Of a stretch of 59,882 nucleotides of DNA, positions 36,601-40,525 are shown in pieces. Origin of the DNA: Thermoanaerobaculia bacterium (GTDB lineage Bacteria > Acidobacteriota > Thermoanaerobaculia > Multivoradales > UBA5704); contig DATANP010000366.1 in the NCBI GenBank assembly GCA_036266195.1, positions 1-59,882 of the forward strand. Reading direction: 5' to 3'. How positions within the stretch are numbered: the stretch's first letter is position 1; each line of letters begins with the position of its first letter. The position numbers were made by a program, and so were the translations under genes. The notes beneath the pieces were generated by a model. That model ran no database searches and was not told the DNA's origin. It worked only from the letters and a program-made list of their open reading frames with translations.

Positions 36601-39600
36601 TCTGGTGGAACAGGCCCGCGGTGAGCCACAGCGAGGTGATCCCCTCCCAGCTCAGGAACGCGCCCAGCTCCTCCAGCGTCGGGTTCTCCGGCGGGTAGAC
36701 CACCAGCGTGCCGCCGTTGAGCAGCGGGCCCCAGATCTCCATGGTCGAGGCGTCGAACGAGAGCGGCGCGAGTTGCAGGAACGCCTGGTCGGCCCCGAAG
36801 TCCGCGAAGTTCGTGTTGCGCACGAGCCGCACCACGTTGCGGTGGGTCACGGCCACGCCCTTCGGCCGGCCGGTGGAGCCGGAGGTGTACATCACATAGG
36901 CCAGATTGGAGGGCGCTGAAGGGAAGGACCCAAAGGACGGCAAGGACGGCAGGGACGAAAGGTCTTCCCAGCAGACGATTCGCGCCGCGGAGGCCGGCAG
37001 GCGGTCGAGCAGATGGCGGCGGGTGATCAGGACCGGCGCGGCCGTGTCCTCCAGCATGAACGCGAGACGGTCGGCCGGGTAGGAGGGGTCCAGGGGCACG
37101 AACGCGCCGCCGGCCTTGAGGATGGCGATCATCGATACAATCGCCTCGGCCGAGCGCTCCAGGCAGAGCGCCGCGAGCCGGTCCGGACCCAGGCCCGCCT
37201 CGACCAGGATGCCGGCCAGCGCGCCGGCCCGGGCGTCCAGCTCCGCGTAGGTCATCTGCCCGCCCGGGAAGCGCAGCGCCACGGCACCCGGCGTAAGGCG
37301 GACCTGCTCTTCGAACAGCTCGTGGATGGAGGCCTCGCGCGGGTAGGGGAAGCGCGTGTCGTTCCACCCTTCGACCACCTGCGCGCGCTCGGCGGCGGCC
37401 AGGAGCGGCAGCTCGGACACGGGCCGGTCCGGCTGCTCCACGAGCCCTTCGAGAAGGGTCTCGAAGCAGCGCGCGAACCGCTCCAGGGTGGAGGGATCGA
37501 ACAGGTCCGCGGCCGCGTCGATGGTGCCCGCGAAGCCGTTGCCCGACTCCCAGAGCGACAGGAAGAGGTCGAACTTGGAGGTGAGCCCCTGCAGGTCCGC
37601 CAGCTCCAGGGTCACCCCCGGCAGCGCCAGCCCCTGCATGGGCGGCGGCTGGAACGCGAACACCACCTGGAAGAGCGGGTTGTAGGCCAGACTGCGCTCG
37701 ATCCGCAGCTCCTCGACGAGGCGCTCGAACGGCAGATCCTGGTGCGCGTAGGCCCCGAGCGCCGAGGCCCGTGTGCGCGCCAGCCGCTCGCGAAAGGAGC
37801 CGTCTTCCAGCCGGCCGCGCAGCACGAGCGTGTTGGCGAAGAAGCCGATCACCCCCTCCAGCTCGCGCCGGGTGCGGTTCGCCACGGGCGAGCCCACCAG
37901 GACGTCGCGGCGATCGGTGTACCGGCCCAGCAGCGACTGGAACGCGGCGAGGGTCGTCATGAACAGCGTGGCCCCGCCCTGCCGCGCCACCCGCGACACG
38001 CCGACAGCGAGCGCGGCCGGCAGGCGGAGATCGATCCGGACGCCGCGGAAGCTCGGCGTCGTGGGGCGCGGCCGGTCCGCGGGCAGCTCCAGCAGGGTCG
38101 GCGCGCCGGCCAGCTCCTCCACCCACCAGGCGATCTGCCGGTCGAGCACCTCGCCAGCCAGCCACTCGCGCTGCCAGATCGCGAAGTCCGCATACTGCAC
38201 CGGCAGCTCCGGCAGCGGGTGGCCGGCGTAGAGCGCGGCCAGCTCGCGGGTCAGCACGTCCATGGACCAGCCGTCGCTGATGATGTGGTGGAGGTTCAGG
38301 AGGAGCCAGGCGTCATCCTCCACCATCCGGTAGAGCGAGACCCGGACGAGCGGACCGTGCTCCAGATTGAACGGGCGGAGCGCGTCCTCCACCAGCAGGC
38401 TCCAGGCCTCGGGAGCCTCGACGACGGTCAGCTCGATCGGCTCGAATGGAGCGATCCGCTGCCAGGGCCGGCCGTCCACCTCCGCGAACGTGGTGCGCAG
38501 CGACTCGTGGCGCCGCACCAGGGCGTTGAACGCCGACTCCAGCGCCGCGACGTCGAGCGGGCCGCGCAGGCGCAGGGCGATCGGAATGTTGTAGACCGAT
38601 TGCCCCGGCGTGAGGCGGTCGATCAGCCACAGCCTCTCCTGCGCGAACGAGGCCGGCAGGAGAGGCTCGCGGGGCACCGGCAGGACCGGCGGAATCCGGC
38701 CGCCCGCCGAGGACCTCTCCTCGTCCACGAGCGATGCCAGACCGGCCACGGTCGGGTTCTCGAACACGGCGCGGAGCGCGAGGTCCACCCCCAGCTCGGT
38801 CGAGACGCGCGAGACCAGCCGCGTCGCGATCAGAGAGTGGCCGCCCAGATCGAAGAAGTCCTCGTCGATACCGACCTCGGAAATCCCCAGCACCTCGGCC
38901 CAGATCGCCGCCAGCACCTCCTCGGTGGGCGTGCGAGGCGCGGCCGACACGCTCCGGCTCACGATCGGCGTGATTGCGGCGAGCGCCCGGCGGTCCACCT
39001 TGCCGTTGGTGTTGAGCGGCAGCGCGTCCATGCGCACGAACGCGCCGGGCACCATGTGCGGAGGCATGCGCTCGGCCAGGAAGCCGCGCAGATCCGGCTC
39101 CTCGTCCGAGCGTCCCACCCAGAACGCGACCAGCCGCTTGTCTCCGCCCTCGCCCTGGACGACGACCGCGGCCTCGGCCACTTCAGGATGGGCCGCGAGC
39201 GCCGCCTCGATCTCGCCCAGTTCCACGCGGAAGCCGCGGATCTTGACCTGGAAGTCGACCCGCCCCAGGAACTCCAGCAGGCCATCCGCCCGCCACCGCA
39301 CGAGGTCGCCGGTTCGATAGAGCCGTTCGCCGGTCCCCCAGAAGGCATCGGGCACGAAGCGGTCGGCCGTCAGGTCCGGGCGATGGAGATAGCCGCGCGC
39401 GAGCCCGTCGCCGCCGATCCACAGCTCCCCTTCGGCGCCCGGCGGCGCGAGCCGAAGGTCCTGGTCCACCACCGCCACCCGCGTGTTGCCGATGGGCCGC
39501 CCGATCGGGAGCGGCGACTTCACCTCCTCGGGCGAATGCATCGGGTAGCACGAGGTGAAGACCGTGCTCTCCGTCGGGCCGTAGCCGTTGACCATGGTGA

Positions 39601-40525: not shown

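Follow-up and report, generated by a model that had tools for sequence, protein, structure and literature searches.

The window analysed here is a 59,882-nt stretch of contig DATANP010000366.1 from a Thermoanaerobaculia bacterium. It is dominated by minus-strand genes for non-ribosomal peptide synthetases (NRPS) and polyketide synthases (PKS), which together contain 13 adenylation (A) domains, and has a G+C content of 64-74% (2-kb windows). The gene in question, NRPS-B, begins with the domain order A-T-C-A-T-C and encodes five adenylation domains, the first two of which are called B1 and B2. In both modules tandem 9-nt AAGGACNNN units lie between the conserved WEDL and NLAY, directly ahead of core motif A3. 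The two arrays are oppositely oriented and both are in frame. Our interpretation, to which we give a probability of about 0.72, is that both segments are single arms of a multi-copy hairpin repeat family, carried as translated passengers in a permissive loop between core motifs A2 and A3. The features of NRPS-B and its two loops are the following.

24689-40762, minus strand: NRPS-B open reading frame (ORF), 5357 codons from the first start
40070-40081, minus strand: WEDL codons of B1, TGG GAG GAC CTG
40031-40069, minus strand: B1 array, sense in the mRNA, GAGGACCTA AAGGACTGC AAGGACGGC AAGGACCTC AAG
40016-40030, minus strand: B1 loop tail RVSPE, AGG GTT TCT CCT GAG, homologous to the RVAPE of module 1 of the array-less relative L120
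36959-36970, minus strand: WEDL codons of B2, TGG GAA GAC CTT
36924-36958, minus strand: B2 array, antisense in the mRNA; the plus strand reads AAGGACCCA AAGGACGGC AAGGACGGC AGGGACGA
36908-36923, minus strand: B2 loop tail, ..P S A P S before NLAY, resembling VAPE/VSPE

The NRPS-B frame stays open as far upstream as 41206 and shares sequence with the end of the preceding gene, which stops at 40522. The gene may start at 40525, abutting that stop, instead of at 40762. It matches the Pfam family AMP-binding (PF00501) over three stretches (E = 2.3e-241), with the A2 and A3 core motifs flanking the loop, and the best relative in the PDB is LgrA (E = 1.7e-146). The array is present only in B1 and B2. 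The other 11 A domains of the window are without it, including the NRPS-A domain near 20.95 kb for which its absence had already been stated.

The whole loops span 40016-40069 in B1 and 36908-36958 in B2. Translation of the minus-strand ORF reproduces the loop peptides and the conserved flanks reported in the original prediction. In coding sense the B1 DNA consists of TGGGAGGACCTG, the array GAGGACCTA AAGGACTGC AAGGACGGC AAGGACCTC AAG, the tail AGGGTTTCTCCTGAG and AACCTG, and the array is translated as E D L K D C K D G K D L K, a series of K-D-x repeats. The WEDL codons of B1 include a further unit-like GAGGACCTG, which is in 9-nt register with the array. The B2 DNA in coding sense consists of TGGGAAGACCTT, the array TC GTCCCTGCC GTCCTTGCC GTCCTTTGG GTCCTTCCC, the tail TTCAGCGCCCTCC and AATCTG. 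Here the frame is ..G TCC TTN, which yields x-S-(L/F) repeats of the SL-PSL-PSF type. With the array defined as at least three RRGGACNNN units at an exact 9-nt period, B1 has four units plus the unit-like WEDL codons and B2 has four. The hexamers keep 23 of 24 consensus positions in each module. Full members of the family have two arms; in either loop there is one arm only, and nothing of its partner is seen there. The B2 tail is probably native, though it also resembles the outer flank of locus L113, a full element described below. In B1, AAGAGGGTTTCTCC was considered as a remnant of a hairpin centre from its resemblance to the spacer of locus L081, and was rejected; RV(S/A)PE is native in the array-less orthologue L120.

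The arrays stand far outside chance. Matches to AAGGACN3AAGGAC with at most one mismatch number 13 in the window, against 0.07 expected. Arrays of three or more units occur five times in the window and in none of 300 Markov-2 shuffles, so that the permutation result argues against a reduction of the match to low-complexity GC-rich sequence. A 4-unit score that allows mismatches brings up the same four sites of the window and no others, and 100 shuffles yield no site. No array was found in 621,293 nt of homologous NRPS DNA (78 metagenome loci with A domains 51-61% identical to B2), and a KDx loop is present in one of 188 homologous NRPS proteins (P0002).

The statistical weight does not lie in the exact inverted match to which attention was first drawn. 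That 15-mer, AAGGACGGCAAGGAC, has its exact reverse complement at 40037-40051 as claimed, but its plus-strand copy is at 36933-36947, 2 nt from the reported 36935-36949. Taken alone it is insignificant: inverted 14-mer matches number 195 in the window, where shuffles have about 77, and several exceed this pair in length. The significant evidence is the periodic array together with the extended match of 36925-36956 to 40037-40068, which over 32 nt is 91% complementary and is the strongest inverted repeat of the region. The claim that a single repeat family supplied both loop segments, one from each strand, holds, given their identical periodic hexamers in opposite orientation.

The source soil metagenome run (X1) contains 77-98% of the window's words. 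Independent Logan contigs of this run cover both loops with 0 differences (a 187-nt contig over 36866-37052 and an 894-nt contig over 39809-40500). A 395-nt contig from sample X3, which represents a strain about 90% identical, crosses the B2 array without gaps or indels. In addition, L119, a contig from a separate JGI metagenome, carries a B1-type array. On this evidence the loop junctions are not an assembly artefact.

In the protein, the arrays lie after LKAGGAF.PLDP (A2) and directly precede A3. To align 'edledlkdckdgkdlkrvs' of B1 to 'dpdsyse--ntnnlphvn' of LgrA takes a gap of only two residues, and the usual homologues have a segment of similar length, '...CLDxDWxxIaxeSxxNPxxxvxpeNLAY'. 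Because the loops of LgrA and the homologues are of similar length, about 13 native codons were replaced and the loop was not lengthened. In an AlphaFold2 model of the B1 A-core (25-sequence alignment, mean pLDDT 90.5, pTM 0.92) the array, at residues 131-140, is the only low-confidence block (pLDDT 58) and is modelled mostly as coil with a short helical turn. The array-bearing segment thus looks like a tolerant surface loop in the model, and a flexible loop away from the conserved core would allow the enzyme to tolerate either array.

Both orientations can be translated through because the unit is 9 nt long and the hexamer is stop-free in any frame, which bears out the original argument that the 9-bp period keeps either orientation in frame. 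The NRPS-B ORF is intact through both arrays. The KD-rich peptide of B1 and the S/L/P/F-rich peptide of B2 share no chemistry, which argues against a common function at the protein level. We regard the arrays as passengers, predicted to be translated, and not as functional parts of the A domain; their function in the enzyme is most likely none.

A full member of the family lies between two genes of the same window.

7002-7086, intergenic, no strand assigned: full palindrome; left arm AAGGACCCA AGGGACACA AGGGACTTA GGGGACAGC, right arm the mirror set of NNNGTCC(T/C)T units

Its start is 10 nt past the stop codon of the gene 5619-6992, which encodes a DEAD-box helicase, and its end lies shortly before an alpha/beta-hydrolase gene. 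Its predicted fold is a long imperfect hairpin of -61.2 kcal/mol, compared with -34.7 +/- 3.6 for shuffles (z = -7.45). The palindrome is built of the same units as mirror-image arms and belongs to the same family, as had been proposed.

We scanned one genome per species (185,579 species) for AAGGACN3AAGGACN3AAGGAC and obtained at least 118 loci. Acidobacteriota, in particular metagenome-assembled genomes (MAGs) of Thermoanaerobaculia, are strongly over-represented among the matches listed. A tolerant detector recognised 29 full palindromes in the 121 loci examined. The full element consists of 3-6 (usually 4-5) AAGGACNNN units, a spacer of 2-47 nt and 3-6 NNNGTCCTT units, for an element length of 75-115 nt, and several full palindromes have complementary outer flanks. 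The hexamer is constant while the three variable positions differ widely between copies, even inside one genome. According to GC3-based gene calls in the high-GC loci, a crude method, 12 of the 20 palindromes are no more than 35 nt from the 3' end of a gene, and four of these 12 lie between convergent genes; the corresponding value for random intergenic placements is 11.7%.

Exact look-ups of the window's proteins gave no record by which the contig could be extended, and read depth and contig counts in X1 served as a proxy of copy number for the genome census. The B2 array has a depth of 137 versus 8.17 in its unique flanks, and the B1 array 107 versus 7.24, so that array depth is about 13-17x that of the unique flanks. 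The B2 array matches 20 contigs, most of them at the 6-9x depth of this genome. Over both arrays there are 20-41 matching contigs, most with unrelated flanks, and many run on into the opposite arm, i.e. are full palindromes.

Rfam 15 gave no gathering-score match anywhere in the window, and for the palindrome only sub-threshold generic microRNA-hairpin matches. A literature search found no description of an AAGGAC 9-nt repeat. With neither an Rfam family nor a literature description, the repeat family appears to be undescribed. Full elements, mainly just 3' of stop codons, would form an imperfect hairpin of about 45 bp in the transcript. The element is a repetitive extragenic palindromic (REP)-like hairpin repeat associated with 3' ends, of unusual periodic build, and from its position and folding could act as a 3'-end structure or as a bidirectional terminator or stabiliser. 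Rho loading (YC per 9 nt), CsrA binding (GGA) and mimicry of Shine-Dalgarno or anti-Shine-Dalgarno sequences were weighed as explanations of the hexamers and discarded; the hairpin would sequester such motifs.

The AAGGAC word is conserved across phyla and base compositions. A palindrome with this hexamer is also found in Chlamydiota of 37-44% G+C (L026, L041, L116), the L041 element being a perfect hairpin of about 50 bp. An uncultured Parachlamydiaceae MAG (L104), likewise of the 37-44% G+C Chlamydiota, has the same architecture with a longer spacer, and the same palindrome build occurs in a Verrucomicrobiaceae MAG of 61% G+C (L115). None of 120 viral loci matching the pattern has a palindrome. 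The viral contigs (L199-L318) contain same-strand arrays, at most 11 per locus, that are seemingly collagen-like (GxK) or KD coding repeats. Viral-type coding repeats of this kind are a background class to be filtered from any census of the motif.

The original prediction assigned the two loop segments to the left and right arms of the intergenic palindrome in this window, placed at 6999-7090. The assignment stands for orientation and hexamers but not for the variable triplets. When the variable positions only are compared, in register from the outer end, the arms of L113 fit best. The B1 triplets CTA TGC GGC CTC agree with the L113 left arm (CTA TGC TGC ATC) at 10 of 12 positions, and the B2 triplets CCA GGC GGC GAA with the L113 right arm (CTA TGC AGC GAA) at 9 of 12; in the latter pair the fourth hexamer is AGGGAC in both. 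In coding sense, B2 and the L113 right arm have 33 of 36 nt in common, including the preceding TTC. Across 921 pairs of arms taken from different loci, agreement averages 4.4 of 12, with seven pairs reaching 9 and one reaching 10. In addition, an X1 contig at genome-like depth has a B2-like arm joined directly to a B1-like arm (joint 36956>40036).

The behaviour of these segments looks like that of in-frame palindromic repeats already known, while the element family itself is apparently undescribed. The nearest parallel in behaviour is with the Rickettsia palindromic elements (RPEs), in-frame palindromic repeats in protein-coding genes (review PMC10969869). Like the NRPS arrays, these are normally non-coding palindromes that occur in frame inside unrelated genes and are translated as extra peptides compatible with the fold. 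However, RPEs are about 100-150 bp long, conserved in sequence across a family, inserted whole and limited to Rickettsia. The NRPS arrays differ in that only the hexamers are conserved, the units are of 9 nt, one arm is present, the loop is replaced and not lengthened, and the host is Acidobacteriota-like. The comparison is therefore one of behaviour, not of sequence.

The intergenic copies resemble REP, BIME and REPIN elements, which are high-copy imperfect palindromes located mostly just 3' of genes and forming stable hairpins in transcripts. REPs are proposed to be 3'-end stabilisers or terminators (PMC3733652, PMC3116915, bioRxiv 10.64898/2026.03.23.713779). High copy number (13-17x depth) and a mainly extragenic location near 3' ends (12/20 within 35 nt) are shared by the AAGGAC elements. 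However, REPs are 20-40 nt long, have a GTAG or CGTC tag and are linked to a RAYT transposase (IS200/IS605-like), whereas the AAGGAC elements are 75-115 nt long with 9-nt periodic arms and copies that are alike in the hexamer only. No GTAG or CGTC tag was found in the 29 palindromes listed, which begin with AAGGAC, and no RAYT was found among the window ORFs scanned.

Intragenic MITEs (miniature transposable elements with inverted repeats), such as Coxiella QMITE1, intragenic ERIC and the Anabaena MITEs, are also small inverted repeats able to fuse in frame with ORFs (PMC10969869; PMC5896051). MITEs differ in having terminal inverted repeats around a unique core, target-site duplications and a parent insertion sequence (IS), none of which is demonstrable for the AAGGAC elements. 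PARCELs are coding tandem repeats with DNA dyad symmetry in which both strands are able to encode repeats, and they have spread horizontally across phyla (PMC2996958). Their units are of 25 residues (75 nt), they make up whole repeat proteins and they are defined at the protein level. The AAGGAC arrays have a 3-residue unit, are mainly intergenic and encode unrelated peptides on their two strands, so that they fall outside the PARCEL definition. Inverted pairs of the Neisseria DNA uptake sequence (DUS) and the Haemophilus uptake signal sequence (USS) place a short conserved word just downstream of genes, where they act as terminators. The AAGGAC word differs in being tandemly iterated at a 9-nt period and comes without evidence of competence or uptake bias.

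The architecture of the family is unusual in its hexamer-only conservation, strict 9-nt period, mirror arms and location mostly just past stop codons. Among the little-studied Acidobacteriota of soils the family is common, and it seems to turn up again in other phyla. With two paralogous loops occupied by opposite strands as an internal control, the case shows that an essential enzyme domain can take up a non-coding hairpin repeat and have it read either way. It also marks the A2-A3 loop as a site of NRPS A domains that tolerates arbitrary sequence, which is useful for engineering, e.g. for the insertion of tags or linkers. For annotation, the arrays break short-read assemblies within biosynthetic genes and can mimic low-complexity protein segments (KD repeats, SL repeats, collagen-like GxK, VL-rich).

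Several observations weigh against our interpretation of the arrays as passenger arms of a hairpin repeat. The 7002-7086 hairpin is followed by no T-run or U-tract and is thus not a canonical intrinsic terminator; a consensus scan gave a small internal stem only. We found neither a transposase nor a target-site duplication, nor an orthologous site in empty and filled states. The combination of constant hexamers and divergent triplets is unusual for a simple selfish repeat and hints at a sequence-specific factor or a homogenising process. It is also mildly surprising for neutral passengers as old as the paralogues that both hexamer sets are at 23/24 of the consensus, although B1 and B2 are 72% identical. 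To these points is added the crudeness of the gene calls behind the 3'-end statistic. No consistent direct repeats were seen beside copies and no parent IS was identified. The only orthologous locus pair, L015 and L077, differs in gene order and has no clean empty site. L079 and L113 were considered as a second pair from their common GGCGCGC(C)TGA left flank and were rejected, the loci not being orthologous.

Two relatives inform the history of the loops. The A-core of L119 (465-1757) is 84% identical to B1 in DNA, and its loop reads WEDL-KDFRDCKDCRDL-KRVSPD-NLAY. Its array has the length and orientation of that of B1 and is identical at 30 of 36 positions (83%), no better than the flanks (84%). 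L119 (1-3715) is a mosaic, in which the upstream end of the C domain matches best the B2 context and the downstream part matches best NRPS-A (13497-15315). This mosaic is, in sequence comparison, evidence for the swapping of A domains among these synthetases. The second relative, L120 (GCA_031390755.1), has a homologous and partly syntenic cluster. Its module 1 (M1) is 82% identical to B1 in amino acids and has the array-less loop FEDVPVGSPGFEPATPESVARVAPENLAY; the loop of its module 2 is QEDLCQEDLPGGGVGMRRRPVPVSPDNLAY. This second loop (L120 13665-13700) has a small duplication of its own at the same spot, QEDL-C-QEDL, encoded by CAGGAAGATCTCTGTCAGGAAGACCTG. The E-D-L site is thus unstable even without the element.

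With B1 and B2 only 72% identical in amino acids, the simple tree is ((B1, L119, L120-M1), B2). In the approximately 100 nt around the loop, the identity of B1 and B2 is 73-86%, equal to or above that of B1 and M1 (69-76%), and just upstream of the loop L119 is nearer to B2 than to B1. The CWEDL junction is unique to B1, B2 and L119. On these alignments the picture around the loop is reticulate. A search for B2 orthologues found nothing beyond 61-67% identity among proteins or metagenome loci, in a protein database that seems poor in very long NRPS proteins. A 73-residue alignment of the three loops used as a query retrieved short AMP-binding fragments only, none with the array. No full palindrome in this loop was found among the 188 homologous proteins or the 78 metagenome loci.

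If the arrays are passenger arms, one arm would have come to occupy the variable A2-A3 surface loop in two paralogous modules at the expense of about 13 native codons. We narrowly favour a single colonisation of a CWEDL-type loop. Duplication or gene conversion could then have carried this loop to both paralogous A domains, which came to keep different arms. Separate captures at the same site come close in likelihood, since the native GAR-GAC-CTN codons (E-D-L) mimic the unit in both orientations. The weight left over by the history of the original prediction, separate captures and in-place inversion falls on other forms of shared origin, e.g. gene conversion of a half-element.

The history given in the original prediction, in which one ancestral palindrome entered the loop, the module was duplicated, and the first (sense) arm survived in B1 and the second (antisense) arm in B2, is plausible but unproven, and we rate it at less than even odds. 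The arrays have an identical codon position and a common CWEDL junction, and the similarity of B1 and B2 is locally raised around the loop. In one element type the left arm resembles B1 and the right arm B2, down to the fourth unit (AAGGAC-(A/C)TC versus AGGGAC-GAA), and the X1 contig in which a B2-like arm abuts a B1-like arm indicates that a palindrome of that composition exists. However, the argument from arm type is worth about a factor of 2, since any antisense arm looks 'right'. B1 is nearer to the array-less module 1 of L120 (82%) than to B2 (72%), which requires an extra complete loss. The native loop length requires two precise and different deletions that also removed native codons, and no intermediate is seen in the 188 homologous proteins or 78 metagenome loci. 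The hexamers are also better kept than expected for an event that predates 28% divergence.

An equally tentative alternative is that two independent captures occurred at a hotspot loop, through template switching or microhomology-mediated repair from an ectopic element. The E-D-L codons are unit-like both ways (GAGGAC for AAGGAC, GACCTT for GTCCTT), and the B1 array is in exact 9-nt register with the GAGGACCTG of WEDL. For B2 the register argument fails, since its array and GACCTT are 8 nt apart and not 9. The tree with an array-less M1 favours gains after the split of the paralogues, and because an ancestral palindrome needs the extra loss in L120-M1, two later gains are as parsimonious. Replacement at constant length is the expected outcome of patch repair, the hexamers are near consensus in both modules and the genome offers many donor copies. 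Against this, the same site would have been struck twice among 13 A domains and thousands of codons, no other A domain gained an array, not even L120 module 2 with its QEDLCQEDL, and the mechanism is hypothetical.

It is improbable that an inherited array was later flipped in place between flanking quasi-palindromic AGGACCT/AGGTCCT heptamers. AGGACCT is nearly its own reverse complement and is found at both ends of the B1 array, and the reverse complement of the B1 array agrees with the B2 array at 29 of 32 positions. However, a simulated flip of the present B1 segment leaves three units, shifts the frame and brings in an in-frame TAG. Nor do the tails agree, and the fourth units differ (CTC versus GAA; AAGGAC versus AGGGAC). 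At the variable positions B1 and B2 agree at 7 of 12, a value no better than that of about 10% of unrelated arm pairs. The arm comparison also hints that B1 and B2 stem from different arms of the family.

Very little weight attaches to the arrays being functional, either through pairing of the arms over 3.1 kb in mRNA or DNA, with effects on translation, stability or recombination, or through selection of the loops at the protein level. The predicted B1:B2 RNA duplex of -70.3 kcal/mol exceeds in stability all of 278 other mRNA windows (mean -33.9, best -51.5), but complementarity is automatic for opposite arms of one family and translating ribosomes would unwind the pairing. The hexamers are well kept in B1, B2 and L119, and the X3 strain has 0-1 changes in 33 array nt versus about 10% in the flanks, a difference that is not significant (p ~0.14); yet the B1 and L119 arrays have diverged as fast as their flanks. 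A common protein function is implausible for two chemically unrelated peptides. RecA-mediated inversion usually needs a perfect match longer than 15 nt, and the longest perfect match here is 15 nt, under that need.

The arrays might also be put down to chance in low-complexity GC-rich sequence, to K/D-rich coding repeats of native origin or to an assembly artefact. In favour one could cite the frequency of exact inverted 14-15-mers in the window, the preference of high-GC genomes for AAG (K) and GAC (D) with KDx repeats that can arise natively (perhaps at 10-48 of the window) and the same-strand coding repeats of the viral matches. These readings are refuted for practical purposes by the shuffle, homologue and assembly checks: the arrays are absent from shuffles and from 621 kb of homologous NRPS DNA, codon usage cannot account for the antisense B2 copy, and three independent assemblies confirm the junctions.

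The remaining array of the window lies at its start.

10-48, plus strand: fourth array, AAGGACGTC AAGGACGAC AAGGACGGC AAGGACGAC AAG, read as KDVKDDKDGKDDK, a charged linker before a DUF4350 domain

The ORF that holds it runs off the window start and extends to 921. Homologues of the DUF4350 protein have K/D/E-rich low-complexity linkers at the same place, such as KDVKDPKDEKD in P0189 (67% identical). This array is ambiguous and may be either native, codon-driven K/D-rich coding sequence or derived from the element.

Arrays within reading frames were also seen at other loci. In L079 (3054-3085) an antisense array is read as VLAVLAVLAVLATL, with arginines on either side, within an open frame of 830 codons (GC3 0.80), and was possibly co-opted as a hydrophobic or membrane segment. 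The arrays of L040 (2324-2355, read as KDAKDAKDAKDAK) and L013 (2927-2949, read as KDSKDAKD) both lie in the final 15-35 codons of long ORFs. The stop-adjacent position of the element seems sometimes to lengthen the C-termini of proteins.

Elements of this kind are found in Acidobacteriota, Chlamydiota, Verrucomicrobiota, Planctomycetota, Hydrogenedentota and bacteria of the candidate phyla radiation (CPR). In Pirellulaceae, Hydrogenedentota and Doudnabacteria MAGs, a gene for a four-helix-bundle protein lies directly between AAGGAC-type 9-mer arrays (L048 1129-2117, L083 1148-2135, L074 3328-4300). The gene matches TIGR02436 with 28.8 bits (cut-off 24) and the suffix domain TIGR04258 with 74.4 bits, and PF05635 below threshold. 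We take the TIGR02436-type family to include Avd, the accessory protein of diversity-generating retroelements (DGRs). A search of the literature on four-helix-bundle and Avd proteins yielded nothing. The gene may point towards a factor, or a mobile unit, connected with the arrays. A dedicated sequence-specific factor is suggested because only the hexamers are constant, at a 9-nt period. On this basis we consider it unlikely, but worth stating, that the (AAGGACNNN)n/(NNNGTCCTT)n hairpin represents an undescribed cross-phylum class of elements with such a factor, whose arms can overwrite surface loops of proteins in the course of templated repair. In that case the NRPS loops would be a trace of active loop rewriting and not a passive relic.

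Two other repeats of the window are separate observations. An inverted repeat unrelated to the 9-nt family, GACCTCACCCCCTGTCCCCCTCTCCC...GGGAGAGGGGACAGGGGGTGAGGTC, lies at 52500-52668 with arms of about 45 nt and a spacer of about 75 nt. It spans an NRPS gene junction (the stop of 52604-59863 and the start of 48132-52607), so that it is partly translated. A lower-GC island (0.64) between NRPS genes, at 46288-46544 and 47132-48088, contains a 21-nt tandem repeat in 11 copies with a 63-nt super-period. The same island has a weak match to an Rpn/YhgA-like recombination-promoting nuclease or putative transposase (TIGR01784, 36.8 bits against a cut-off of 52.1).

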